Sequence record: LC765218.1
Length of the DNA: 64,000 nucleotides
Strand: one strand, 5' to 3'
DNA from: Pseudomonas phage BRkr
Under the pieces are notes generated by a model that saw only the letters and a list, made by a program, of their open reading frames with translations, was not told the DNA's origin and ran no database searches. The position numbers and the translations under genes were made by a program. Positions 7,021 through 59,651 of the stretch are shown piece after piece. Positions within the stretch are counted from its first letter, which is position 1, and every line of letters begins with the position of its first letter.

Positions 7021-7036
7021 CTATATTACAACTGTG
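7021..7036 (+). promoter_or_regulatory. phiKZ-type early promoter, copy 1 (cTATATTACAACTGTG)
   Basis: One of four near-identical copies of cTATATTACAAnTGTGaATA. Each lies 39-47 nt upstream of a start codon and just downstream of a terminator. TATATTAC matches the early-promoter core reported for phiKZ-like virion RNAP. Confidence 0.65.
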
Positions 7037-18404: not shown

Positions 18405-18424
18405 CTATATTACAACTGTGAATA
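18405..18424 (+). promoter_or_regulatory. phiKZ-type early promoter, copy 2 (CTATATTACAACTGTGAATA)
   Basis: Identical over 16 nt to copy 1. Lies 42 nt upstream of the first gene of a cluster of six tiny membrane-protein genes. Confidence 0.65.
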
Positions 18425-19373: not shown

Positions 19374-19383
19374 GACGGCATAA

Positions 19384-19427
19384 AGCTCCTACCTTCGGGT
19401 AGGAGCTATGCTTTATTTTTTTTTATT
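19384..19427. terminator. Bidirectional terminator (AGCTCCTACC-TTCG-GGTAGGAGCT). T-run on + side, CTTTATGCCGTC on minus side
   Basis: 10-bp stem with a UUCG loop. Lies between + gene 19134-19373 and minus gene 19423-19845. Confidence 0.7.
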
Positions 19428-19845: not shown

Positions 19846-19883
19846 ATTAATTGTTAGACGACTATGCCGGGGGTCCTCGTTGA

Positions 19884-21496: not shown

Positions 21497-22093
21497 TTAT
21501 TTCACGAAGGAAACAGTATCAACACCAGCTTCTTGCATCTTAGCAATGAGACCCATCAGCAGTGGTTGAACAGCTGTTTCTACTTTATGTTGGAGATTTG
21601 CGTAACCCAAAGTCAGCTTACCGATTTGATCGAGATCAGCCAGATCAGGTGTACCAGTTTTGTTTACGTGAAGAATACTAAGAGCTTCCAGAGCACTGAT
21701 CATCTGTTCAATATCAGACATGCAGTTTTGCAGATCTTTAGAGAAACCTTCAGGATCACTGAGTTTACTCAGAATTTCTTCACGACGCTCCAGCGCCGGA
21801 ATGATAACAATGGAAGTAGCATTAAGAGCAGCAGCTGTAGTGCGATACAATTCGCGAAGAATGGCCCAGCCATCTTCTTTAATGAGTTGTTGTGCTGCTA
21901 CAGCAGAAACTTCTACAGCTTGGTCCAGTTGTTCTTTCGGGGACAGTGCGGTCATTTGATTGTGCTCCAATTTTGGATTATGGGGGAATATTTTATCAAG
22001 GGCTTCAGAGAGCCGTTTTTCATCTTCAGGAGTTGGTTTTGGATGGTGTATTGTATCCATCAAATTAAACGGCAGCTCACTAAACTTACTCAT
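21497..22093 (-). CDS. Hypothetical protein
   Basis: 198-aa ORF with RBS AGGAG 8 nt upstream on the minus strand. Preferred over the overlapping + ORF 21371-22096, which has Cys/Phe-rich junk composition. Confidence 0.6.
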   Translation of the reverse strand: MSKFSELPFNLMDTIHHPKPTPEDEKRLSEALDKIFPHNPKLEHNQMTALSPKEQLDQAVEVSAVAAQQLIKEDGWAILRELYRTTAAALNATSIVIIPALERREEILSKLSDPEGFSKDLQNCMSDIEQMISALEALSILHVNKTGTPDLADLDQIGKLTLGYANLQHKVETAVQPLLMGLIAKMQEAGVDTVSFVK

Positions 22094-22217
22094 TGAAGCT
22101 CCTAATGGAATAGTGTAGTAACATAGATGTTACAGGAAACGTAACTTTTCACATATTACGAAGACATACCTGCAACATAACCGTATGTTAGATATTCATT
22201 TATACAGGATAATTCCA

Positions 22218-23069
22218 ATGAAAGAAATGCTAGATAGTATCCTCACTCCCCTAGTGATGGAAGAACGAAAAGAAATCATGCTTGAATGCGTAGCTTCCCT
22301 AGAGGAAATGGATTACTCGGCAGCTCTTGATGAACTGCATACCGTTTGCTCTATTGCTGATGACAATGCAGACACTATGATGTTGCTTGGCCGTATCGAC
22401 GATATTATCCGTGTGGCCCATGATCAGGTTCTAGCTGCACACGAAGTTAAAGTATCGGATGAGGCGACACAAGAGCAACGGCTTGCAATTGTCCATACTA
22501 TTTTAGGTTTGCCAAATTATATTCTTCCTGACCAGATTGAGTTGATTCTACAAGGCGATTTCGATAATGAGGAAATTCTTGCTCATCTGGTACCTATGTT
22601 TGAACGCCTTTCTTTCGACGAAGTGTGGCCTTTAATTAATGAAGTATCTGTTTCTTTCATCGATGCTTTAAAAGCGATGGTGCAAGACACTATGATGACG
22701 CGTGGTCACATCGACGAATACATCGCTCCTGTATCCCGTATCCGTGTTCTTAATCGATTGATGAATACCATAGGTCGAGATAAGTTTAGTATGGTTCTCG
22801 AACTGTCTAATTCTGGTATGCGAGTCGGACATGACTGGTTAGAACTCCTTTCTAATAGTCTTGAAAGCCTGGACAATAAGAACGCTCAAGATGCGGCTTA
22901 TGAAATGGTAGGTCTTGCATTCTTCTCTAATCTTCACCTCGATAGTATCTATAGCACTGTTAAAGTTTCTATCGATGAATACACAGAGAACGAGATGGAA
23001 CGTAATATCATGGAACGGGTGATCGACGAGATCAAGCGTAAAATGGGAAAGCTCTATGAAACTGCGTGA
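22218..23069 (+). CDS. Hypothetical protein
   Basis: The ORF track starts at 22185, but that ATG lies inside a TATGTT palindrome. The in-frame ATG at 22218 with upstream AGGA is preferred. Either start is possible. Confidence 0.55.
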   Translation: MKEMLDSILTPLVMEERKEIMLECVASLEEMDYSAALDELHTVCSIADDNADTMMLLGRIDDIIRVAHDQVLAAHEVKVSDEATQEQRLAIVHTILGLPNYILPDQIELILQGDFDNEEILAHLVPMFERLSFDEVWPLINEVSVSFIDALKAMVQDTMMTRGHIDEYIAPVSRIRVLNRLMNTIGRDKFSMVLELSNSGMRVGHDWLELLSNSLESLDNKNAQDAAYEMVGLAFFSNLHLDSIYSTVKVSIDEYTENEMERNIMERVIDEIKRKMGKLYETA

Positions 23070-25899: not shown

Positions 25900-25919
25900 G
25901 CCCTCCCTTCAGGGAGGGC
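25900..25919 (+). terminator. Class-B terminator: GCCCTCCC-TTCA-GGGAGGGC + CTTTATGCCGGC (preceded by AACATAAC)
   Basis: Perfect 8-bp stem. TATG lies 44 nt upstream of gene 25966. Confidence 0.65.
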
Positions 25920-25965
25920 TTTATGCCGGCAATGGTATAGGTTTTAAGAAAGAACAGGATTACAT

Positions 25966-27234
25966 ATGTTCGAATCATTATTAGCAGTTCTTAATAAGTA
26001 CGATGATACATTTCCACCAGGATCACAAATTCCAATTGCTGGTAGTGATTACTTTAGTTATTTCGGTGGGTTTAAAGCAGGCCTACCACAACCTGAAGCA
26101 TTCTCTAATCTAGTTGGTTTCACAGAGGGTACATTACACACTAGTGAAACAACTTGGTTTAAATACAAAGAGAATAACAGACTTATTTATTTACCGAAAA
26201 CACCTTTTAGACGAGGCGCTGCTAGATCGATTATAGAGAACCATGGACTCATCGATGGTAAGGAAATACAGATCGGTAGACATAAGTTCCTATGTCGTGT
26301 TATGACGGGTATTGATAACCCTGGTGCCAGTGCAACTGGTGGCGGCGAATATAACCGTTTGGTTTATTCGATGGTAATACCCAGACAATCTGGTGCAGCG
26401 GCATTTGAGTCATTCTCAACAAGTGACTTTGGTTTAGCTAGTACCGGTGGGGCTAATTGGGTACGTGAAGTCCAAACTACTGGTACTGACGTAGGTAAAG
26501 GCTTCTATCGTGGTTTTAATTCAATCAGCTATGTGGGTAGAGAAGTAGCTGGTTCAAATATGAATAACTACGGATGGCGTCCAATTCTAATTTGGATTGA
26601 CCCGGACATTATTCCATCGAAAGGACCTGGTACTGAATCACTTATAGCCGGTAATGACGATATAGGTTACTTTGGTCGTGTCCCATCTAGTGAATTAATT
26701 ACAGCATCTGCGTTAGCTACCTTAGTTGGTTTGAGCGAGGGGACTGTTCTTAATGAGGCACCGGACTGGTTTAAGTTCTCTCACAGAAGTACCATTCTTT
26801 ATATCCCACAAAAACCACTCAAAAACAACATGACATGGAATTCTCTGGCAAGTGCTGGATTGAATGGTAGGGGTAAACGAATCACTATCGGTGACAACGT
26901 ATACCAGTGTCGATTGATGTATATTGGCGCTACCGATACAGGTATAACCAATAACGCTGCTCCAGGAAGAGAATGGCGTGATCTAATGTATAACGTCCAT
27001 GGAACTGTAACCGGTACAAAGGCATGGGAAAACTTAACCAACGCTGATCTCGGGGTAGGTGGACAAGGAGCCGGTAGTTATAGCTGGGGTCAGGAAACTG
27101 GCTTAGTCGATGGTAAAACAGCATATGCCGGTATCGGTTATAGTAACATGTCCCAGTTGAATATTAACGTACCCACCAATACGGGTGCACATATGGGTTG
27201 GCGTCCTGTTCTAGAGTTGATTGGTAAAGCTTAA
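25966..27234 (+). CDS. Putative virion (fibre-like) protein with internal tandem duplication
   Basis: Two ~200-aa homologous halves. One runs from LVGFTEGTLHTSETTWFKYKENNRLIYLPKTP through NNYGWRPILIWI. The other runs from LVGLSEGTVLNEAPDWFKFSHRSTILYIPQKP through AHMGWRPVLELI. A TATG-containing tail sits 44 nt upstream. Confidence 0.6.
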   Translation: MFESLLAVLNKYDDTFPPGSQIPIAGSDYFSYFGGFKAGLPQPEAFSNLVGFTEGTLHTSETTWFKYKENNRLIYLPKTPFRRGAARSIIENHGLIDGKEIQIGRHKFLCRVMTGIDNPGASATGGGEYNRLVYSMVIPRQSGAAAFESFSTSDFGLASTGGANWVREVQTTGTDVGKGFYRGFNSISYVGREVAGSNMNNYGWRPILIWIDPDIIPSKGPGTESLIAGNDDIGYFGRVPSSELITASALATLVGLSEGTVLNEAPDWFKFSHRSTILYIPQKPLKNNMTWNSLASAGLNGRGKRITIGDNVYQCRLMYIGATDTGITNNAAPGREWRDLMYNVHGTVTGTKAWENLTNADLGVGGQGAGSYSWGQETGLVDGKTAYAGIGYSNMSQLNINVPTNTGAHMGWRPVLELIGKA

Positions 27235-27243
27235 CGGCATAAA

Positions 27244-27263
27244 GCCACACCTAATGGTGGGGC
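27244..27263. terminator. Bidirectional terminator (AACGGCATAAAG-GCCACACC-TAAT-GGTGGGGC). Minus side followed by CTTTATGCCGTT
   Basis: Lies between convergent genes 25966-27234 (+) and 27273-27641 (-). Confidence 0.55.
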
Positions 27264-27272
27264 AATATGTTG

Positions 27273-27641
27273 TCAATACCCTTTATTCAAGAGTTCTGCT
27301 AAAGCGCGTGCTTGTGAGATATTAGTCGATGCAAAGACATCAGAAAGATATCCTTCGTTTGCTTCAGCTCCTTTACGAAGTTCTTTCATCAGGTCAGGAT
27401 TCGCCTTTGCCCATGTTTCCCATAGAGCTAAATATGCATCCCATGAGTTTATAGGACTCAACGGAGGCTTGCCTTTACCGAGCTTCCAATTAGTACCACC
27501 AACATCATAACCTTTAACATCGCATTGGTAGTGCATCTCAATAGTTCGGCCATCGGGCATTACAGCATTTAAGGCGGAGAACCTTTTATCGCCAACGGAG
27601 GAACATTCGTATCCTCCGCGACGTTTCCATCGATATATCAC
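27273..27641 (-). CDS. Hypothetical protein, translationally coupled to upstream exonuclease/polymerase gene
   Basis: 122-aa ORF with a GTG start overlapping the upstream stop (GTGA). An internal Met is an alternative start. No motif recognised. Confidence 0.45.
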   Translation of the reverse strand: MIYRWKRRGGYECSSVGDKRFSALNAVMPDGRTIEMHYQCDVKGYDVGGTNWKLGKGKPPLSPINSWDAYLALWETWAKANPDLMKELRKGAEANEGYLSDVFASTNISQARALAELLNKGY

Positions 27642-29581
27642 TTTGGGGAGTTAGCCTTCTTATCCAAATAAAGCTTCAGCATCTCATCCAGCTTCGGAGC
27701 CTTCATGATTTTCTGACAGATCTCAATGGCATTAACACGTCCACCTGTCAAGTTCACACCTACTTCTCGACGATGATGTTCGGAGATATCTTTCATCATG
27801 GAGAATTCCATGACAGTTGTTTCCCGAGCGATATTGAGAATCTGACTAACGTTCGGATAAGTCGAAACGATGTCAAGGTCAGCTACGTGACTAAAGATCA
27901 AAGTCTTGTAATCAGGTAAGTCCTTAACACACTTCAACCCATTTGGACCAGCCATATAGGACGGCAGTGTAACAATCCAGCTATCATGACCTACAACGTA
28001 TTGATCTAGCTCGTGAACCATCTGGTCGGAGCTAGTGCCAATTACGCATGGCTCAGGACGGTTCAGATACCAGAAGTGCATGTCATCACAGAGACGCTTC
28101 GGGTTAGAGCTGAAGTTCTTATAGTCAGAAGACTTAGAGAACAGAGTAATCGAACTAGCAAGGTCGTTGATCTTTTCATCCAGTTGTTCCAGACGAATGG
28201 AGTCAATGATGTTGTAAAGACCATAACGAACCTTGTGGTTCTTCTGCATCTCAATGTGCCATTCGATACCACCAAGGTGATCAGTTTCAGCAAACTTAAG
28301 TTTACCAAAGTTCATTGTGTAACGAACATGGTTACCTAGGTGCACAGTTTCACCCCAAGTGAAATGCTCTACCGGTGTCCAATCATCCTCTTTACCGCTA
28401 TAGTTAACAAACAGATACGGATAACTACCAGGACGTTCTACCAGAAGTTTATCAAGACTCTTCTTGAATTTAATCAGATCTTCTTCACCAAGAATCTCTG
28501 TCTCTTCATCAACGTTTAGCTCCTTCTTAAGAATATAGTCGAGAGCATACGAAGGCTCTTTACCTTTAGCAAGACGAGTTACCCGATACGTAGACATCGC
28601 ATCAATGGGTTGGAAAGAGGCAGGACATGTAATCCAATGCCACTGATCTTCAGGTCCCTTAGATTTAGTAACACCAGAAGCGGTAGTTGTCATCGCCTGG
28701 TCTTGGCGGAAATGGAAATACTTGTAATTATTAGGAACAGACGGATCGCTAAATACAAGTGCCGGATCAACTCCTGCATCTTCCAGGGTCTTCAAGATTC
28801 GACTCATGTCGAAGCTGATGTTCCAGAAAGAGAAGAAGTCTGGTTTCCATTCGTGTAGCCGCTTAATACAGTTAATGACAATGTGAACTGGTTGATCAAC
28901 CACTTCGATTTCTATTTTAAGATTACGGCCATTACGAAGTGCAACCAATTCAGGAATACGTTCTAGTTCCTCGAACGTTTCTTTCACGGGGTCTTTAAGA
29001 TCACTAACCCAATGTTTAAGATAGGCAAGATAAACGTTTTCTTTATGGCTTACGGACATACAGATAATCTGTCCGTCTTTTCCATCTTCGTAAACGTTGG
29101 TCTCAATATCACCACCTGCTACCGTGTTACGAGAAATGAGATCAGGTGCAGCAGTTCGATAATCGTTCTTCAAGCAGCATACAGAACTAACGTCCGCACC
29201 ATACAGGTAAGGACTTCGACTCAGTTGACGAAGCCTAGGGTTAGGTCCCATGCTGTAATCACCCAGAGCTTTAGCAATCGCATGCGGCATGTTAATCTGG
29301 GTAGACTTACGTTTAATAAGCTTACTAGCGTACTCATAGTCTTTCTTCTCATGATAAGTACGCTGGCTTTCTTTTTTATTTGCTTCAGGATCCAGCCACC
29401 ATGGCCGTTCATAATCCTCAATAAACCTCAGTCGTGGAATCCTGCGTTTATCTTTAAGATGCACGACTTCTTTAACAACATGTAAGTCATGCTTACGGTG
29501 ATTCCTATCGGTGACGTATGTAATATGTTTAGCCTCGACACCGATTACATCTTCTTTACTGAAAGAAATATTATCACTCAT
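27638..29581 (-). CDS. DEDDy 3'-5' exonuclease / N-terminal portion of a family-B DNA polymerase (motifs Exo I-III and putative motif A only)
   Basis: Exo I GGDIETNVYEDG, Exo II FWNISFDMSRIL, Exo III PSYALDYILK (Y-x3-D). About 240 aa later comes DLDIVSTYPNV, resembling polymerase motif A DxxSLYPS. No motif B (KxxxNSxYG) or motif C (DTD) occurs before the stop. Confidence 0.55.
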   Translation of the reverse strand: MSDNISFSKEDVIGVEAKHITYVTDRNHRKHDLHVVKEVVHLKDKRRIPRLRFIEDYERPWWLDPEANKKESQRTYHEKKDYEYASKLIKRKSTQINMPHAIAKALGDYSMGPNPRLRQLSRSPYLYGADVSSVCCLKNDYRTAAPDLISRNTVAGGDIETNVYEDGKDGQIICMSVSHKENVYLAYLKHWVSDLKDPVKETFEELERIPELVALRNGRNLKIEIEVVDQPVHIVINCIKRLHEWKPDFFSFWNISFDMSRILKTLEDAGVDPALVFSDPSVPNNYKYFHFRQDQAMTTTASGVTKSKGPEDQWHWITCPASFQPIDAMSTYRVTRLAKGKEPSYALDYILKKELNVDEETEILGEEDLIKFKKSLDKLLVERPGSYPYLFVNYSGKEDDWTPVEHFTWGETVHLGNHVRYTMNFGKLKFAETDHLGGIEWHIEMQKNHKVRYGLYNIIDSIRLEQLDEKINDLASSITLFSKSSDYKNFSSNPKRLCDDMHFWYLNRPEPCVIGTSSDQMVHELDQYVVGHDSWIVTLPSYMAGPNGLKCVKDLPDYKTLIFSHVADLDIVSTYPNVSQILNIARETTVMEFSMMKDISEHHRREVGVNLTGGRVNAIEICQKIMKAPKLDEMLKLYLDKKANSPK

Positions 29582-29689
29582 TTTTGAGCTTCCTTTTTAA
29601 AACTTAAATCACGTAGTATTAATCACCAGAGTAATCTCTCATTCGAGCTTTACTTTATGATTAATAAAACTGACGAGTAGGCCACTCTC

Positions 29690-32944: not shown

Positions 32945-32982
32945 CAACATAAAGCCCGGCATTGAGCCGGGCTTTATGTCGT
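32944..32982. terminator. Long bidirectional palindromic terminator ACAACATAAAGCCCGGC-ATTGA-GCCGGGCTTTATGTCGT
   Basis: 16 of 17 bp palindrome arms. Exactly fills the gap between convergent genes 31706-32944 (+) and 32983-35898 (-). Confidence 0.7.
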
Positions 32983-40945: not shown

Positions 40946-40965
40946 GGGGAACCACACGGTTCCCC
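40946..40965 (+). terminator. Class-B terminator GGGGAACC-ACAC-GGTTCCCC + TTTATGCTATGTTATC
   Basis: Perfect 8-bp stem, preceded by GACATATT. Lies 37 nt upstream of gene 41005. Confidence 0.65.
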
Positions 40966-41004
40966 TTTATGCTATGTTATCTATTCACATGTCAGAGAAT
41001 CGAA

Positions 41005-43664: not shown

Positions 43665-43682
43665 GGGGAGCTTCGGCTCCCT
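43665..43682 (+). terminator. Class-B terminator GGGGAGC-TTCG-GCTCCC(T) + TTTATGCTATG
   Basis: UUCG loop. Lies between paralog genes. Confidence 0.6.
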
Positions 43683-43718
43683 TTATGCTATGTAAACTAA
43701 TTCTATTTCGAGGCTAAC

Positions 43719-44988: not shown

Positions 44989-45006
44989 GCCCTCCCTATG
45001 GAGGGC
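44989..45006 (+). terminator. Class-B terminator GCCCTC-CCTATG-GAGGGC + TTTATGACTGCTATGCC (preceded by AACATAAAT)
   Basis: 6-bp GC stem. Lies between paralog genes. Confidence 0.55.
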
Positions 45007-45055
45007 TTTATGACTGCTATGCCAAATTCTATGTTTAACATAACGAGAAATCAAA

Positions 45056-46216
45056 ATGGACACTCGTCAGAATCCAGCAAATCGCCCGCAATTAAAAGAT
45101 AGTCCTCAGGAAGAACTTCCGGATATGATCGTCAATGATCATGAACAAGAATTCAAAGATTTGTTTGAAGCCCATATCGCTATTGAAGCTTATCTTGATC
45201 AATTAACTGATGCAGGTCGAGATGGCCTAAGTTTACAAACTCGTAAGTTCATGGCTATTGGTCTTGAGCATATAGACCGTATTCTTGGTAAACAAGAACG
45301 TGTATCGATTGAAGCACTTCTTACTGATCCAACTATTTCACAAGAGTCACTAGTTGATCGTTTAAAAGAGGTGGGTAGAAAAATCCTTGAGCTCATCGAA
45401 AAGATAATCGATGAAGCTAAACTACTCGCGCAACGTGTTATCTCTGGTATCAGCTCAACTGAAAAGAAAACAGAAGAGCTTCTTAAGTTAGCTCAACAGA
45501 GCAGCAATAAGAAAGCCAGTATGGAATTCCATGACAACGGTACAACTATCACTGTTAATGGAGCTTCCAAGCTTTTTGCAGGCTCTGAGTTCTGCCTGGA
45601 TGATTTCAAAGCTGAAACCACTGTAATGAAGTTCTTCATTAATACTTACCCGAAGTACCTTGTCGATAATATTAATCGGCTATGTAAGTCCATTAAGAGT
45701 TACGATGTAGAAACTGGTGATATCACGACATTTGAAGCGAACTCGGAATTCATTGGTAAGCATACCAGTATTATTCATCCGCTCAAAGATGTTGTTCTAC
45801 CGGGTAACTATGTTATCCATTTCCGCGACGTATCTCTTCTACCAATGGTCATCCATGATGAGGATATGACCAGCGGGCCAGAAACATATGAACATCCAGT
45901 GCGCAGTCGATTGGAAATCCAAAAGACTCTTAAACAGAATCTGGTCGTTACAAATAGCCTTGGTGAACTCTTTAAAGAGGAAGCTAAGGTACTTGAGCAA
46001 ATGAAATGTCTAACCAAAGATCTTATTGCATTGGAAGATCGTCGTGGTGAGACAGTATGGAAAAGATCTCGGGATGCTCTAGATCGAGTGTCTAGTATTG
46101 TAATGGATCTTATTCCGAAATTACGGCCGAACTATGGTCCAATTGTTGCACGTATTAATGCTATCACTAACATTCGAAATAAAGTGTGTGAATTAGAGCT
46201 CAGTGCGACCTCTTAA
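45056..46216 (+). CDS. Paralogous acidic virion-protein family member 3
   Basis: Carries the motif AIEAYLDQLTDAGRDGLSLQTRKFMAIGLEHIDRILG. A hairpin plus TTTATGACTGCTATGCC lies upstream. Confidence 0.65.
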   Translation: MDTRQNPANRPQLKDSPQEELPDMIVNDHEQEFKDLFEAHIAIEAYLDQLTDAGRDGLSLQTRKFMAIGLEHIDRILGKQERVSIEALLTDPTISQESLVDRLKEVGRKILELIEKIIDEAKLLAQRVISGISSTEKKTEELLKLAQQSSNKKASMEFHDNGTTITVNGASKLFAGSEFCLDDFKAETTVMKFFINTYPKYLVDNINRLCKSIKSYDVETGDITTFEANSEFIGKHTSIIHPLKDVVLPGNYVIHFRDVSLLPMVIHDEDMTSGPETYEHPVRSRLEIQKTLKQNLVVTNSLGELFKEEAKVLEQMKCLTKDLIALEDRRGETVWKRSRDALDRVSSIVMDLIPKLRPNYGPIVARINAITNIRNKVCELELSATS

Positions 46217-46276
46217 CCAATTCTATGGTTATTAACAATCATCATCGCGCGATGATTCTCCTCCGAGGAAAATGTA

Positions 46277-47710
46277 ATGCTACGATCCATTCATAAATAC
46301 GTCGGTTCTCTAGAAGAATTCAAAGAAGAACCGATTACTCCAGAAGTTGCTGCTGTTGCAGAAGCTCCTTTGGAAACACAAGAAGTAGAAGTCATCGAAG
46401 CACCGACCAATGTGGTCGATGAGGCTCCTGTTGAATTACCCGTTCCGACACCTGTACCCGAAATTGGTGCAGTTGGTACCGATACTGTTGTAGAAACCGA
46501 GCCGGTTGAAGTACCTGCTGAGATTGCTCCTATCGAAGGTCCAGTTGACGTTACTGAAGCTGTTGGTGAAATCGATGCTGTATCGCATGCTCACGTTGAA
46601 AAAGAAATCCTTGAACAACGTGCAGATGAACTGATTGAAACGCAACATGCCCTTGAAGCGTATTCTGGTCTACTGCGTCAAGCTCGTGGGGAGATTTCTC
46701 AACAGACGGCAGCATTCCTTCGTGTTGGTATTAAACAAGCTGAACGTGTTCTTGGTACTAATCAAGTATCCACAGGACTTGAAAACTATAATGCCGGCGA
46801 ACGTTCTGATATTCTTCGTGCAGAAATTTCTGTAGAAGATATTAAAGAATACGCCAACAAGGCATTTGAGAAACTGAAAGAAATCATCGAGAAGATCATT
46901 GACGCCATTATTGGTGGTATCGATAATCTGATGAACGGTATCTCCAAAGCAGATAAAGTTGTCACTCAACTCGAAGAGATTCTTGCTTCTGGTGGTAATC
47001 TCTGGACCGGTACAGGTAAGACCTTTGTTCTTAACAATCCGGCACCTGTCTTTGCGAATGGTAAATCCAAACTTGGTGATACCAAAGTTCTCAGTGGTCT
47101 AGCTCATTTCTCGGCTTACGTATACCCGGCCGCTGTTAAGAAATACTACGAGAACCTTGCTAAACTTATTAGCGGTTATAACGTAGTTAAAGGTGATGGC
47201 GAAGAGATGTCGGAGAAGTTGTACAAAGCTACCGCTCCTCTTGATGACATCTACGGTGCAAACTACGATATCTTCCCTGGTAACATGCGTGTTGAACTTC
47301 AAGCAGACGGTATCGTTTACGGTATTGGTCCAGCCACTTCTGCCAAAGAAGCACCGGCGGAATTTGAAGTTAAAGTATCCAGTCCAAGTACTCTGCGTAC
47401 CAATACGAAACGCCTTCGCGATATCATCGAGATTCTGAAAGCAGCTCGCGATGAACACGTTAAGATCAAAGAAGGTGCTGAAGCCCTTAAGAAAGCAGTT
47501 AGTAAAATCGAAGATCAGCTTAACAATGAAGATCTCGACGATGCATCTAAAGCTGCTGCTCGAAAAGTAACTCAGACTGCACTGGAACTGATTCGTGAAT
47601 CCAACCCGCGTTCTCGTGAAATCATCCGGTATGTAACCCGTACTGTTGTTGCATACGCTTCTGTTTATATTCAAGAAGCTAAGCTGCATAAAGAGCCGGC
47701 TAAAGACTAA
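46277..47710 (+). CDS. Paralogous acidic virion-protein family member 4
   Basis: The N-terminus MLRSIHKYVGSLEEFKEE parallels MLKNIHKYITSLEDFAES of 48976-51510. Carries the motif ALEAYSGLLRQARGEISQQTAAFLRVGIKQAERVLG. Confidence 0.65.
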   Translation: MLRSIHKYVGSLEEFKEEPITPEVAAVAEAPLETQEVEVIEAPTNVVDEAPVELPVPTPVPEIGAVGTDTVVETEPVEVPAEIAPIEGPVDVTEAVGEIDAVSHAHVEKEILEQRADELIETQHALEAYSGLLRQARGEISQQTAAFLRVGIKQAERVLGTNQVSTGLENYNAGERSDILRAEISVEDIKEYANKAFEKLKEIIEKIIDAIIGGIDNLMNGISKADKVVTQLEEILASGGNLWTGTGKTFVLNNPAPVFANGKSKLGDTKVLSGLAHFSAYVYPAAVKKYYENLAKLISGYNVVKGDGEEMSEKLYKATAPLDDIYGANYDIFPGNMRVELQADGIVYGIGPATSAKEAPAEFEVKVSSPSTLRTNTKRLRDIIEILKAARDEHVKIKEGAEALKKAVSKIEDQLNNEDLDDASKAAARKVTQTALELIRESNPRSREIIRYVTRTVVAYASVYIQEAKLHKEPAKD

Positions 47711-47716
47711 GACATA

Positions 47717-47740
47717 GACGGGGCTCTTCGGAGTCCCGTC
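47717..47740 (+). terminator. Class-B terminator GACGGGGCTC-TTCG-GAGTCCCGTC + TTATGTTCAGGAG (preceded by AGACATA)
   Basis: 10-bp stem with one G-U pair. UUCG loop. Confidence 0.65.
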
Positions 47741-47759
47741 TTATGTTCAGGAGTTAACA

Positions 47760-48881
47760 ATGGAAACAGAAAATATTCCCCTAGATGTGGAATCTAATCC
47801 ACCCGAGGAAATCGTCGTATTCGATGACTCCCCTGCGGCATTGAGTGCGCTACTTGAGAAAGATGAAGTTACTGCTAATCGTATTCTTGATCTAATTGGT
47901 GGTTTTGAAAATTATCCAATGTTTGAAAGAGAATCACATCTACTAGATCTCGGTTGTGAAGATTTCAAAGGAACCGTTGTAGGTATTCTTGATAAAGTCA
48001 TTGCATTTCTAAATCGAATTATGGAAGATATGTTCGATGGTAGTCTAGCTTTATCTCTAGCATTTGACAATATCCTTCTTCGAGTAGAAGAACTTAATAC
48101 GTTAACACGTACTACTGCACGCCGTTCAAAGGAACCGACCTTTGATGTGACTACTCGAATTCAAAATCTTTGTGTTCGTTATAAAGCCATCAATGAAGTA
48201 CAGGGATTGATTGCAAACCTAAAGAACCTTGAGCAAATTGGGAAACAGTTCTTTGATTACAATAATGAAGAACTTATTCGTGCAGCATTCCATATCCCAC
48301 AGCGCATTACAACCGCTGAGGAATTAAATAAACTCGTTGAAACAATCATGTTATCCAACCCGGTTAAAATGGTTTCTTCTAATCCACTTTATAGTCATCG
48401 TGGATATCGGCATGAGTCTCTTCACCTGATGGGTAATTATCAGGTCGTAGTTCTTGACAAATCGCCAGAAGCAACTGGTATAGATCGAATGTTGGGTATC
48501 AGTGTTAAACTAGATAACTCTGAACGTGATCCTTTGCCCCTTCCAGATTTAATTAAATTTCAACATTTCTCTGGACCTGTACAGATTACTGTATTGCGCC
48601 AAGTAGAGAAGATGGCCGAGATGTTTAACCGTGCAAGTGGTATGAGTATCCGTCATCGTCGGAAAGAACGTATTCGATCAATGTTGAATATTGTCAAAGG
48701 TATTCGTAATCAGATTGTCAATGATCAAGTTGAGGGCGCAGATGAAGCAATTCTACGTCAGTTTGTTGAAGTACTTGAGCGCTACATTGATTGGCTTGCT
48801 AATCCTTACTTGGGTATCTTGGCTCTTGCCGGGCGTAATCTTAACGCTGTTCTTAATGTATGTCGTTCCAATATTAAGTAG
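47760..48881 (+). CDS. Hypothetical protein in the paralog array (weak family resemblance)
   Basis: 373-aa ORF with RBS AGGAG. Hairpin plus TTATGTT lies 18 nt upstream. Confidence 0.6.
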   Translation: METENIPLDVESNPPEEIVVFDDSPAALSALLEKDEVTANRILDLIGGFENYPMFERESHLLDLGCEDFKGTVVGILDKVIAFLNRIMEDMFDGSLALSLAFDNILLRVEELNTLTRTTARRSKEPTFDVTTRIQNLCVRYKAINEVQGLIANLKNLEQIGKQFFDYNNEELIRAAFHIPQRITTAEELNKLVETIMLSNPVKMVSSNPLYSHRGYRHESLHLMGNYQVVVLDKSPEATGIDRMLGISVKLDNSERDPLPLPDLIKFQHFSGPVQITVLRQVEKMAEMFNRASGMSIRHRRKERIRSMLNIVKGIRNQIVNDQVEGADEAILRQFVEVLERYIDWLANPYLGILALAGRNLNAVLNVCRSNIK

Positions 48882-51523: not shown

Positions 51524-51546
51524 GCCCTGCCCTAAAAAGGCAGGGC
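51524..51546 (+). terminator. Class-B terminator GCCCTGCC-CTAAAAA-GGCAGGGC + TTTATGCCGGATCTTATG (preceded by AACAACATATT)
   Basis: Perfect 8-bp stem. Confidence 0.65.
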
Positions 51547-51588
51547 TTTATGCCGGATCTTATGATCTTAAACCATGAGGTGGTTACC

Positions 51589-53235
51589 ATGCCCCATGCA
51601 ATTATCCCCTTGCCAGACGTATACGAAACCGTAATGCGGAAGGTATCAGTCGATGCTATTCGACAAATTGCTACAATGATGCAGTTACCCGGTGCTACCC
51701 GAGTTTACCTACCTGGACGTGTCGATACCGTTCCTATGAACGACGGTATGTTTGGTAACTGTTGCGATGCAGCCGATGCTGTTCACTTTGACCCAGAAGA
51801 ACGTATTACAGTTGCATATGAAGAAATAGCCGAAGAGAACTTTACTCTTTCAACTGCGGTTTATAACAACGAGAACTTTCCTCTATTCGTTGATGATGTT
51901 CATGATATTACTATTCGACCGATTCGACGTTTTGTTGACTTCAGGATAGACATTGAATATCAGGCACCTAACGTGGTACTGGCTCAACGCTGGTTAGACG
52001 ATCAACGGATACGTTGTTCAGCCGGCGGTGCTGAGATGACAATGTCTCTAACGTATCACTATAATGTCCCTCCATCTCTTTTAGGTTTGATGAAAGGACT
52101 GTATGATACAATGCAGAAGTCAAACTGGCCAACCGATCTAACCTTCCGTGAGTGGATGGAGAAACATTGGTGCCAACCTCAAACCGAAATGGCTACCCTA
52201 GCAAGTACACATCCTACACTTTCTATATACGAACGTCAAGTTGATGTGGTCGGTTGGTTTGACTTTAGTACATCTCCAGATACGCCACAAAAGTCGTCTG
52301 ATAATGCTGGTGGATACACTGTTAATTTTAGCTATCTGTGTCGTTATGAACGACCTACGCATATGCGTGTTAACTATCCAATCCTAATGAACCAGTGTAC
52401 TATTCCTAAAGTATTCCGACCGGAGTATCGATATCAGAATTATCAAGCGGTTGATCGGAAGACTACATCTTTACGTGGAACATTAGATCATCAATTTCTC
52501 TTAATGCGAGATATGGGTCTACCTTATATCCAGCATCCAGATATCGATGATTGGCATACTGACCAAATTCCACCGCACCGCTTCACATTCTTTAATGGGT
52601 TGTTGTGCCTGAGTAAAGATGACCTGACATCACTGATGGACTTCAAGAACCTAGGTCGATTTACATTCAATCCATATTGGCTTGAGTTTATCCAGACTCT
52701 AGGAACAGCTGCAATCGCAGATGGCTCTTTCTTTGAAATCCGGTTGTACCAAAATAACGAGCGGTTACGTGTACCGATGACAATTGATCCTGGGACTACT
52801 CTTCTGAGAACAACCATCCCACTGGATCCTTTGAAGTACTACCACATTCAAATTAGTCTCTCTAAGAACTTCTATGGTATCCATGATAAGTACTGGGAGA
52901 TGATTCGTCGTTATCCAACTACCTGCTGGAGTCTGTTCCGGTTGTTCCGTGTTAGTATTGGTCGTAACCCGATCGAGAAAATGGAACTACTGGGTCTAAG
53001 TGGTCCTCGTCCAGAAGATCCCGATGCTCCAGGTGAAGGTACTACACCAATCACGTCTGACCTGCCTAATACGTTTAAGCGTGGTATCGTGAAATGGGGT
53101 GATATTGCTAAAGCTCGTGAAGAGCAAGACAAGATCATCGCAGAAGTTGGAGCCAGTGGTGGTTATATAGATCAACACAAAGTCGGTCCATTGAACGTAT
53201 TATTTTCGCACATTATTTCTGACATTAGGAGTTAA
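51589..53235 (+). CDS. Hypothetical (probable virion) protein
   Basis: The ORF-track start 51550 is the ATG inside the CTTTATGCCGG tail. The in-frame ATG at 51589 has RBS GAGGTGG 8 nt upstream and is preferred. Confidence 0.6.
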
Positions 53236-56639: not shown

Positions 56640-57071
56640 ATGCAGAACGTGTTCTTTCGTATTGACCACGTTTGGTCATACAACTTTATTGGATCTATAA
56701 AAGGATTCATCGATCTTTCAATAGATGTAGTAAACCACTTATACTCTTTAGCCACTGAGTATGTGAAACTACAGCACAACTTTATTTATAACCACAACGC
56801 TAAAGAGTTCAATAAAGGGTATCAATACATCCTTATGGAACTACAACGCTATCCAATCGATACAAGTTTCTTTGAAGGTAATTTCAAAGAACTATATAAC
56901 TTTCATCGATTAGCATTTAATAGCTTAAAAGGTGAAATCGAGACTATAAAGACATATTGCAACGACGAAGGGAATATAGAGGCGTTCATTATAGAACTTC
57001 GTGAGTGTCCACCTTGCATTCAAAGCATTTTAAACCCTATATCACAATTGGGAATAAACCAGTTATATTAG
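56640..57071 (+). CDS. Hypothetical protein
   Basis: 143-aa AT-rich ORF following the class-A terminator. Confidence 0.5.
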   Translation: MQNVFFRIDHVWSYNFIGSIKGFIDLSIDVVNHLYSLATEYVKLQHNFIYNHNAKEFNKGYQYILMELQRYPIDTSFFEGNFKELYNFHRLAFNSLKGEIETIKTYCNDEGNIEAFIIELRECPPCIQSILNPISQLGINQLY

Positions 57072-57938: not shown

Positions 57939-57950
57939 TCAAACCTAAAA

Positions 57951-57973
57951 AGCCCTGGTCTTCGATCAGGGCT
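57951..57973 (+). terminator. Class-B terminator AGCCCTGGTC-TTCG-ATCAGGGCT + TTATGTCGTG
   Basis: UUCG-containing loop. Follows the macro-domain gene. Confidence 0.55.
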
Positions 57974-58012
57974 TTATGTCGTGTCAAACCAAACCCAAAA
58001 GGAAATTGAAAA

Positions 58013-58467: not shown

Positions 58468-58486
58468 CTATATTACAAGTGTGATA
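58468..58486 (+). promoter_or_regulatory. phiKZ-type early promoter, copy 3 (CTATATTACAAGTGTGATA)
   Basis: Consensus match. Lies 43 nt upstream of micro-ORF 58513. Confidence 0.6.
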
Positions 58487-59629: not shown

Positions 59630-59651
59630 GTATATTACAAATGTGATAATA
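59630..59651 (+). promoter_or_regulatory. phiKZ-type early promoter, copy 4 (GTATATTACAAATGTGATAATA)
   Basis: Consensus match. Lies 47 nt upstream of micro-ORF 59678 and just after terminator 59567-59594. Confidence 0.6.

Follow-up and report, generated by a model that had tools for sequence, protein, structure and literature searches.

The window, that is, the whole 64-kb stretch of DNA that we analysed, probably carries two distinct phiKZ-type transcription signals that share the tetranucleotide TATG, promoters that start at TATG and terminators in which TATG follows a hairpin; a preliminary description of this DNA had merged the two. These signals are additional cases of the known middle and late TATG promoters of phiKZ and of phiKZ-type terminators. 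Our reading is built on sequence, statistics, conservation, and orthology to mapped phiKZ transcript ends, and from these we infer the 5' and 3' ends, the temporal class, and the polymerase in the phage from which the window comes.

The window is 99.5–99.8% identical to the Pseudomonas jumbo phages phiHQ, HHBS36_1, PS119XW, PA1C, and phiLBG22 (genus Pawinskivirus) and 84% identical to HPP-Temi; the intergenic identity to HPP-Temi is 89%, so the footprinting power of this comparison is limited. By BLASTP of the window proteins against phiKZ, the genes follow phiKZ gp65–gp99 in the same order, gene for gene (27–71% protein identity in the region), with a lone rearrangement, the inversion of the gp82-gp82.1-gp83 block in the window. 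Encoded here are homologues of the nvRNAP (non-virion RNAP) subunits gp68, gp71–73, and gp74, a homologue of the virion RNAP subunit gp80 (70% identical to that of phiKZ), and an internal-head-protein array. We found no transcript map for Pawinskivirus in the literature searched; therefore, the experimental anchoring comes entirely from phiKZ and 201phi2-1. The phiKZ transcription start sites (TSSs) and termination sites (TTSs) are those of the tables in the bioRxiv supplement of Putzeys et al. (rows P001–P003 and P008–P126 of the TSS table and part of the terminator table), with coordinates checked against the phiKZ sequence; the statements on mapped phiKZ ends that follow refer to these rows. 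ONT-cappable-seq yielded 149 TSSs for the ~370 genes of phiKZ, so a TSS that is missing from a given tail is not proof that no transcript starts there. Our statistics on tails and their context cover the 64 kb of the window in a genome of 301 kb.

The gap at 22094–22217 parts the homologues of gp78 (minus strand) and gp79 (plus strand) and is the orthologue of the phiKZ gp78/gp79 gap. By its sequence, the gap holds a back-to-back pair of deeply conserved promoters with TATG initiators, one on each strand, for which we predict starts at the G of each TATG (Table 1). We aligned this gap across nine phages that represent at least seven genera (the window, HPP-Temi, PhiPA3, phiKZ, 201phi2-1, Phabio, Psa21, Viktualia, and RVTF4). 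Only TAACATA (minus-strand TATGTTA) and AAC-NN-TATGTTA are invariant in all of them; the rest is scrambled. In the phiKZ table rows covered, the TSSs P038 (74086, minus strand) and P039 (74150, plus strand) both lie on the G of TATGTT and are both classed as middle. The leftward promoter reads GTGAAAAGTTACG-N14-TATGTT in the window and GTGTAAAATTACC-N14-TATGTT in phiKZ, the rightward promoter reads CCGTATGTTAGATATTC in the window and CCCTATGTTAATAATTC in phiKZ (with a 31-nt leader in both), and the G-to-G distance between the divergent starts is 65 bp in the window and 64 bp in phiKZ. The proposal of a bidirectional TATG pair in this gap is thus borne out, with sequence and spacing orthologous to mapped phiKZ starts. 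Three further minus-strand TATGs in the gap (22152, 22165, and 22176) are all lost in HPP-Temi.

The same pair had been proposed as late promoters, and here the orthologues argue otherwise, because P038 and P039 are middle promoters with an AAAnTTAC-type element at −22. In the window, a middle-type element (AAanTTACc/AAAnTAC, ~22–24 bp upstream of +1) is present on the leftward side (AAAAGTTACG), where GTAAnnTTT is partly conserved across genera; on the rightward side the −22 element matches the middle motif only loosely (GAAGACATAC; counterparts AAAGAATAC in HPP-Temi and AAAGAATAAC in phiKZ). The corresponding middle-promoter element of P78M, AAAATTACC, was described by Yakunina et al. (2015; PMC4666361). 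A late promoter would be a TATG start that precedes a virion gene and is free of a middle-type upstream element, a definition that leaves out the pair at 22122 and 22187. From the class of P038/P039 and from the identity of gp80 as a virion-RNAP subunit gene, we infer that the pair belongs to the middle class. The ATG within the rightward TATG (22185) is annotated as the start of the gp79 homologue in HHBS36_1 and HPP-Temi; we rejected this start because in PhiPA3 and 201phi2-1 the added codons are out of frame or interrupted by a stop, because ATGAAA/ATGCAA at 22218 is conserved, and because the phiKZ transcript begins at the G.

TATG is in excess between genes: the plus strand has 21 intergenic copies when 9.6 ± 2.7 are expected from dinucleotide shuffles, and none of the 2000 shuffles yielded as many as 21. 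Among intergenic 4-mers, only GGAG, the Shine-Dalgarno core, is more strongly enriched. The whole of this enrichment stems from hairpin tails. On both strands together, 21 of 45 intergenic TATGs are located 0–2 nt 3' of a GC-rich hairpin; on the plus strand these account for 11 of the 21 copies, and the 10 that are left after their removal are at the chance level (9.6). We therefore rejected TATG counts alone as a promoter caller and, the free copies being uninformative in number, used orthology and conservation for promoter calls. The distance from hairpin to TATG is nearly constant (1.0 ± 0.9 nt), and that from TATG to the start codon ranges from 15 to 77 nt (sd 16). A general TATG-to-ATG spacing had been claimed, to be given up if that spacing did not differ from random expectation; with the spacing fixed to the hairpin and variable to the start codon, the claim falls on its own terms. 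The TATG coordinates themselves are all exact, except that the copy placed at 51562 is really at 51561–51564. A scan for sigma-70 promoters gave fewer matches in the window than in shuffles (23 vs 43), and a generic terminator scan overlooks most of the hairpin-TATG elements because their T-run is short. Within genes, sense-strand TATG is depleted relative to synonymous shuffles (O/E 0.70, z −10, rank 4 of 256); almost all of the depletion is in the frame xxT|ATG (O/E 0.53; 0.62 in phiKZ), and a milder form is seen in T4 (0.81). The depletion, bound to one frame and present in T4, is therefore at least partly codon context; we dropped it as a polymerase-level signal and did not use it as evidence.

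The motif BCCYCCCCHWWDGGGRRGGBYTTATKYYGT is common to 61 phiKZ terminators (Putzeys et al., 2024; PMC10914365), and a study of 201phi2-1 reported the same motif and eight terminators that work in vivo (PMC11512511). The logo of the window tails aligned on TATG, GGGC-TT-TATG-YY-G(11/21)-T(15/21), matches the tail of the published phiKZ motif. The hairpins fold with −15 to −26 kcal/mol (z −3 to −7; 11 elements), often with an outer helix in which CAUA pairs with UAUG. The exact sequence GCTTTATGYYG occurs at eight sites, all of them hairpin tails, and four of these are on the minus strand of convergent gaps, aimed into the 3' end of the opposing gene; with at most one mismatch there are 13 matches (3.3 expected). 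In the comparison with HPP-Temi, the stems in gaps 19374 and 27235 have been rewritten through compensatory changes. Of the 21 tail TATGs, 20 are retained, against a background retention of 0.69 among intergenic 4-mers (p = 0.004); the T-run varies both within and between relatives (TTTATG, TATATG, AATATG, and TTATG). Our analysis classes the hairpin-CTTTATG(YYGT) elements as phiKZ-family terminators of the intrinsic type, with predicted 3' ends.

Table 1. Predicted promoter elements, starts, and terminators in the window (positions in nucleotides from the first base of the window)
Feature	Position	Strand	Context and counterparts
Leftward promoter, initiator TATGTTA	22119–22125	−	reads TAACATA on the plus strand; invariant in nine phages; kept in HPP-Temi; orthologous to phiKZ TSS P038, 74086
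Predicted leftward +1	G at 22122	−	28-nt leader with AGGAG Shine-Dalgarno; gp78-homologue start at 22093
Leftward middle-type upstream element AAAAGTTACG	22140–22149	−	−27 to −18; aligns with phiKZ P038 GTGTAAAATTACC-N14-TATG
Rightward upstream element GAAGACATAC	22160–22169	+	−27 to −18; weaker match to the middle-type element; proposed from alignments
Rightward initiator block AAC-NN-TATGTTA	22179–22190	+	invariant in nine phages; orthologous to phiKZ TSS P039, 74150
Predicted rightward +1	G at 22187	+	31-nt leader to gp79-homologue start at 22218; leader of identical length in phiKZ P039
Predicted late start CTTTATGATTAATAAA	29656–29659	+	gp84 homologue, 31-nt leader; orthologous to phiKZ late TSS 81932 (CTTTATGATTATAAA, 31-nt leader); 100% conserved in HPP-Temi
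Predicted late start, second TATG (GCTATGT)	40973–40976	+	5 nt beyond terminator tail; hairpin-YTTATGCTATGT layout like phiKZ P049; kept in HPP-Temi
Predicted late start, second TATG GCTATGTAA	43689–43692	+	27-nt leader to 43719; near-identical to phiKZ P049 CTTATGCTATGTAATTAAG, leader 27–28 nt
Predicted late start AATTCTATG	45030–45033	+	gene at 45056; kept in HPP-Temi; resembles phiKZ P050 AATTCTATG
Predicted late start CCAATTCTATGG	46224–46227	+	gp95 homologue at 46277; orthologous to phiKZ P050 CTAATTCTATGG, TSS 95917
Predicted late start GATCTTATGATCTTAAAC	51561–51564	+	gp98 homologue at 51589; identical 18-mer at phiKZ P054, TSS 101390
Predicted terminator of minus-strand gene 11630–11992	11590–11622	−	tail GCTTTATGCCGTC into 3' end of plus-strand gene; no downstream gene in that direction
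Predicted terminator, convergent gap	19376–19410	both	minus tail GCTTTATGCCGTC, plus tail CTATGCTTTATTTTTT; HPP-Temi stem fully rewritten, TATG kept on both strands
Predicted terminator after gp81 homologue	25900–25928	+	8-bp GC stem and tail CTTTATGCCG; −21.8 kcal/mol, z −6.2; orthologue of phiKZ T039, TTS 77890; phiKZ tail without a TSS in the rows covered
Predicted terminator, convergent gap	27235–27269	both	minus tail GCTTTATGCCG, plus tail AATATGTTG; compensatory stem changes in HPP-Temi
Predicted bidirectional terminator, convergent gap	32947–32979	both	14-bp stem, −25.7 kcal/mol; TTTATG tails match GCTTTATGYYG on both strands
Predicted terminator hairpin and tail TTTATG	40946–40971	+	fold and hairpin-tail layout
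Predicted terminator hairpin and tail TTTATG	43666–43687	+	fold and hairpin-tail layout
Predicted terminator hairpin and tail TTTATG	44989–45012	+	fold and hairpin-tail layout
Predicted terminator with tail CTTATG	47717–47745	+	15 nt before gp96-homologue start; stem near-identical to phiKZ T044, TTS 97650; phiKZ without a TSS in the rows covered
Predicted terminator with tail CTTTATGCCG	51524–51552	+	positional orthologue of phiKZ T046, TTS 101370
Predicted terminator with tail CTTTATGTCG	57949–57978	+	fold and tail motif

Six TATGs that stand free of the hairpin tails, at 29659, 40976, 43692, 45033, 46227, and 51564, carry the sequence feature of late promoters and are likely late starts by our analysis, some of them 5–21 nt past a terminator. 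Starts predicted by orthology are kept in HPP-Temi in eight of eight cases, vs 4 of 14 other free TATGs (Fisher p = 0.0017). The earlier proposal of a late promoter at 29656 was a very good call, since both the sequence and the leader are orthologous to a mapped phiKZ start (TSS 81932, which the part of the table covered lists as validated by Ceyssens 2014). At 45009, also proposed as a promoter, the conserved candidate is instead the TATG at 45030–45033; the intervening copy at 45018–45021 is lost in HPP-Temi. The start at 46224–46227 does not appear among the sites listed in the preliminary description.

As for the polymerase, initiation by the phiKZ nvRNAP requires TATG, with the G as +1 (PMC4666361), and GP123 binds the single-stranded non-template TATG, again with +1 at the G, in a pocket for which seven residues have been named (PMC12809450). 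The GP123 homologue of PS119XW (gp144) is 69.5% identical to the phiKZ protein and has all seven of these residues (S144, N186, S330, S334, N398, S402, and Q466), an outcome with a chance of ~8% at this identity; Goslar shares three of the seven and an AR9-like phage two. TATG recognition of the phiKZ type is therefore plausible in the window phage. In the mechanism that we propose, the pair at 22122 (minus) and 22187 (plus) would have the phiKZ middle architecture, that is, a TATGTTA initiator with +1 on the G and an A-rich/TAC element ~22 bp upstream; as in phiKZ, TATG would presumably be recognized by the beta-lobe pocket of the nvRNAP. The leftward promoter would drive the gp78-gp77 homologues, and the rightward promoter the homologues of gp79, gp80 (the virion RNAP subunit), and gp81. 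Transcripts would end within a few nt of a tail TATG, 5–8 nt after the stem, and genes behind terminators would be served by read-through or by a separate free TATG promoter, sometimes located 5–21 nt downstream (40976, 43692, 45033, and 51564).

The preliminary description suggested that the hairpin and TTTATG may be fused into one module. In such a model, RNAP would terminate at the hairpin and (re)initiate at the G of the same TATG to give a leader of 15–45 nt. The fused module has points in its favor: the phiKZ nvRNAP needs TATG for initiation (PMC4666361); the genes at 25966, 47760, and 58013 have the terminator tail as their only upstream TATG; the tail TATG is better conserved than the adjoining T-run; and the would-be +1 lies no more than about 2 nt from the point of termination, so the open bubble would expose the non-template TATG. 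The mapped phiKZ ends, used as a proxy, point the other way. Among the table rows covered, a TSS falls on 0 of 18 hairpin-tail TATGs in the 49-kb syntenic segment of phiKZ and on 8 of 29 free intergenic TATGs (Fisher p = 0.017); for the late promoters (58 rows covered), 44 start at TATG and none of these 44 is on a terminator-type tail. The tail TATGs of T034, T035, T036, T039, T040, T044, and T046 instead have RNA 3' ends mapped no more than 3 nt from their G, and three of these terminators (T039, T044, and T046) are the orthologues of the tails at 25922, 47742, and 51549, with mapped 3' ends and, in the rows covered, no 5' ends. Where a second TATG comes after a terminator tail in phiKZ, the mapped start is on that second copy: P049 has the layout hairpin-CTTATGCTATGT with TSS 94330 on the second TATG, P075 starts 10 nt after T064, and P054 (GATCTTATG), TSS 101390, is 20 nt beyond T046. 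Terminator and promoter are thus often neighbors but remain distinct elements. These layouts recur in the window at 40971/40976, 43687/43692, and 51552/51564 (the last with an identical 18-mer), so of the double TATGs named earlier (40968/40973, 43684/43689, and 51549/51562) the second is the predicted start from the phiKZ data and the first is a terminator tail. Also against fusion, the spacing is fixed to the hairpin rather than to the start codon, and a co-oriented gene is next downstream, at variable distance, for only 8 of the 21 tail TATGs; the other 13 face none. For the gene at 47760, the phiKZ orthologue has a 3' end and, in the rows covered, no start; the gp83 homologue (25966) has its own late promoter in phiKZ, and the inversion put the window copy behind a terminator, so dual use of that one tail is possible. 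Taken with the published terminator motif, these observations make a fused module improbable and argue against tails such as those at 25922, 47742, and 57975 as late promoters. Another alternative concerns the gap at 22.1 kb, where the "two perfect palindromes" described earlier do exist, at 22118–22133 (GTAACAT-AG-ATGTTAC; 7-bp arms, 2-nt spacer) and 22174–22189 (AACATA-ACCG-TATGTT; 6-bp arms, 4-nt spacer), as interrupted inverted repeats that are not strictly perfect. They could control the divergent genes, either by binding a dimeric regulator or by forming cruciforms; two such repeats with arms of at least 6 bp within 124 nt occur in 2% of mononucleotide shuffles, and the half-site AACATA/TATGTT is common to both. 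However, the symmetry is broken in HPP-Temi (GTAACATAGATGTAAC and AACCTAACCGTATGTT), the second arm is absent from phiKZ, PhiPA3, Psa21, and RVTF4 in the nine-phage alignment, one half-site of each repeat is invariant, and folding is weak (−4.4 and −2.6 kcal/mol, the second no better than its own shuffles). We therefore consider regulator sites or cruciforms very improbable and rejected the palindromes as functional units; conservation is limited to the TATGTTA half-sites, and the repeats appear to be lineage-specific by-products, which would have arisen from extra partial half-site copies nearby and would have no function of their own.

A further possibility, about the mechanism of the terminators, would leave promoters and terminators as separate elements: the beta-lobe pocket might read the tail TATG as a stop signal. 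With the active site of the elongating RNAP at the G, the non-template TATG would dock under the beta-lobe as in the open promoter complex, and the pause, 5–8 nt after the hairpin, would offset the short U-run. This idea would fit the invariance of TATG at tails in which the T-run varies within and between relatives, reverse-strand tails such as GGGC-AATATG-TTG that keep TATG and have no U-run, and the phiKZ 3' ends no more than 3 nt from the G in the table rows covered; it would also fit the binding of single-stranded non-template TATG by GP123 (PMC12809450), with the pocket residues conserved in the Pawinskivirus homologue. The idea is conjectural; we found no paper that links the terminator tail to the promoter motif. 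Terminators of 201phi2-1, chosen to span its several motifs, function in uninfected P. chlororaphis with the host RNAP (PMC11512511), so a phage-specific reading is not required for termination, and in the published phiKZ motif the fourth position may be either G or T (K). Pairing of CAUA with UAUG in the outer helix means that 3'-end stability could explain part of the conservation of TATG. In addition, U followed by G, as in the E. coli elemental pause consensus, is a generic pause context for any multisubunit RNAP. We regard a stop signal read by the pocket as rather unlikely. Were it correct, one four-base sequence, read by one nvRNAP pocket, would mark both ends of transcription units, as a start at promoters and as a stop 5–8 nt after a hairpin, a generalization that we hold as tentatively as the reading itself. 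At 25925, before the relocated gp83 homologue, TATG might, rarely, do both.

For Pawinskivirus, a genus that is used in phage therapy and in work on the phage nucleus, the analysis provides a predicted regulatory map of 64 kb, with one bidirectional middle-type pair, six likely late starts, four clear early-type promoters, and about a dozen terminators, and it also amends gene starts. The promoter pair between gp78 and gp79 shows conservation down to the base in at least seven genera. P78M is used poorly in vitro by the purified nvRNAP despite its TATG (Yakunina et al.; PMC4666361), which implies an extra factor or determinant; the pair is therefore a good substrate for asking what beyond TATG specifies nvRNAP promoters. 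The identity between the tetranucleotide of terminator tails and that of promoters, unremarked before, offers a hypothesis that is cheap to test.

The closest known counterpart of the divergent pair is phiKZ P038/P039 (P78M of Yakunina et al., 2015), with TSSs mapped by Wicke et al. (2021) and Putzeys et al. (2024). The two share orthologous flanking genes, TATGTT(A) on both strands, starts 64–65 bp apart, and an AAA(A/G)TTAC element 14 nt upstream of the leftward TATG. They differ in the length of the gap (124 nt in the window, 170 nt in phiKZ) and of the leftward leader (28 nt vs 76 nt), in the rightward −22 element, which is degenerate in the window, and in the half-sites, which form inverted repeats only in the lineage of the window; moreover, the starts are mapped in phiKZ and predicted in the window. 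The phiKZ late promoters, which have a TATG initiator (e.g., P119L), are matched in context and leader length by the six free TATGs, whereas the pair at 22.1 kb carries middle-type upstream elements. The hairpin elements resemble the terminator motif of phiKZ and 201phi2-1 (motif A in 201phi2-1) in their GC-rich stem, their loop of 4–7 nt (often TTCG), and their tail, C-TTTATG-YY-G-T, as well as in their location after genes and in convergent gaps, often symmetrically with CATAA upstream. In the window, however, the fourth tail base is G at 21 of 21 sites (which were selected on TATG), and two more terminators carry TATA (2031 and 17793); the papers on phiKZ and 201phi2-1 describe the tail as 'TTAT', without comment on its identity with the promoter tetranucleotide. 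As an analogy only, a stop read by the promoter pocket would follow the same logic as sigma70-dependent pausing. In promoter-proximal pausing at −10-like non-template sequences, the promoter-recognition surface re-reads its motif during elongation and halts the enzyme. Here, an integral beta-like subunit would take the place of sigma as the reader, and the enzyme would terminate at a hairpin.

Within the coding sequence of the window as a whole, sense-strand TATG, the tetranucleotide shared by promoter initiators and terminator tails, is depleted when set against shuffles of synonymous codons (rank 4 of 256, with O/E 0.70 and z -10); with the same shuffles, the one-letter neighbours of TATG show no such depletion there. 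phiKZ (L004) was also scored, with T4 (L013) as the control. Nearly all of the depletion falls in the frame xxT/ATG (O/E 0.53 in the window, 0.62 in phiKZ and 0.81 in T4), so codon context accounts for at least part of the effect, which is stronger in the phiKZ-like phages.

Deposited annotations disagree on the genes that flank the divergent gap. For the gp79 homologue, HHBS36_1 and HPP-Temi use a start at 22185, that is, the ATG within the promoter TATG; cross-genus alignment and the phiKZ transcription start support 22218. The gp78 homologue is cut to 21497-21955 in the PS119XW annotation, which also places an ORF on the + strand at 21980-22096; we regard the latter as spurious. In the window the 198-aa ORF of the gp78 homologue (21497-22093) is intact. 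Elsewhere, GACGACTATGCCGG, which resembles a terminator tail, lies antisense in the gap separating two minus-strand genes (19863-19866, +). Its TATG is kept in HPP-Temi and the short stem beside it is not; the element could be an antisense terminator or a start.

The published phiKZ tables of transcription starts (P) and RNA 3' ends (T) are used with a caveat: several 3' ends lie at the positions of opposite-strand 5' ends (see the table), which may reflect strand mis-assignment or processing.

Early-type promoter sites in the window and coincident RNA ends in the phiKZ tables
Feature	Genome	Coordinates	Strand	Remark
TATATTACAANTGTG, exact copy	window	7022-7036	+	upstream of gp68 homologue
TATATTACAANTGTG, exact copy	window	18406-18420	+	
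TATATTACAANTGTG, exact copy	window	58469-58483	+	
TATATTACAANTGTG, exact copy	window	59631-59645	+	
Weaker early-type sites	window	12026-12033 and 57038-57052		
T055/P065	phiKZ	117934	opposite	shared 3'/5' coordinate
T056/P068	phiKZ	118183/118184	opposite	shared 3'/5' coordinate
T045/P053	phiKZ	98802/98803	opposite	shared 3'/5' coordinate

The early-type motif TATATTACAANTGTG occurs in four exact copies, and allowing up to two mismatches gives five matches (0.65 expected); the start of the gene downstream of the motif is in every case 25-45 nt away. It agrees with the phiKZ consensus for early, virion-RNAP promoters (...TATATTAC...), and the copy preceding the gp68 homologue has the same placement as its phiKZ counterpart, early promoter P034. 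A variant, TATATAAT, lies upstream of the gp71-73 homologue, the non-virion RNA polymerase gene.

That polymerase gene is a single, uninterrupted 703-aa ORF in the window (12066-14177), whereas in phiKZ (L004 8276-11596) gp72 is inserted between gp71 and gp73; the DNA polymerase gene of HPP-Temi (L005 27034-30699) is broken by an HNH endonuclease gene that the window lacks. The relatives differ in mobile insertions at both polymerase genes. HPP-Temi (L005 16210-17745) and phiKZ have the gp75 helicase homologue as one ORF, whereas the window and the relatives 99% identical to it have it as two (16234-16671 and 16686-17768); possible reasons for the split are recoding, a frameshift or stop, and a sequencing issue.

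The block gp82 (DNA polymerase)-gp82.1-gp83 (25966-29581) is inverted relative to phiKZ 77960-81861 (in L004); the gp83 homologue is thereby placed directly behind the gp81 terminator, and the DNA polymerase gene becomes divergent from gp84. For the latter polymerase gene, a non-TATG middle start is likely near 29611 (-), with a predicted leader of about 30 nt: upstream, on the minus strand at about 29609-29636, lies ATTACTCTGGTGATTAATACTACGTGAT, which is similar to the phiKZ middle promoter P040 (..ACTAATATAGTACG/T).
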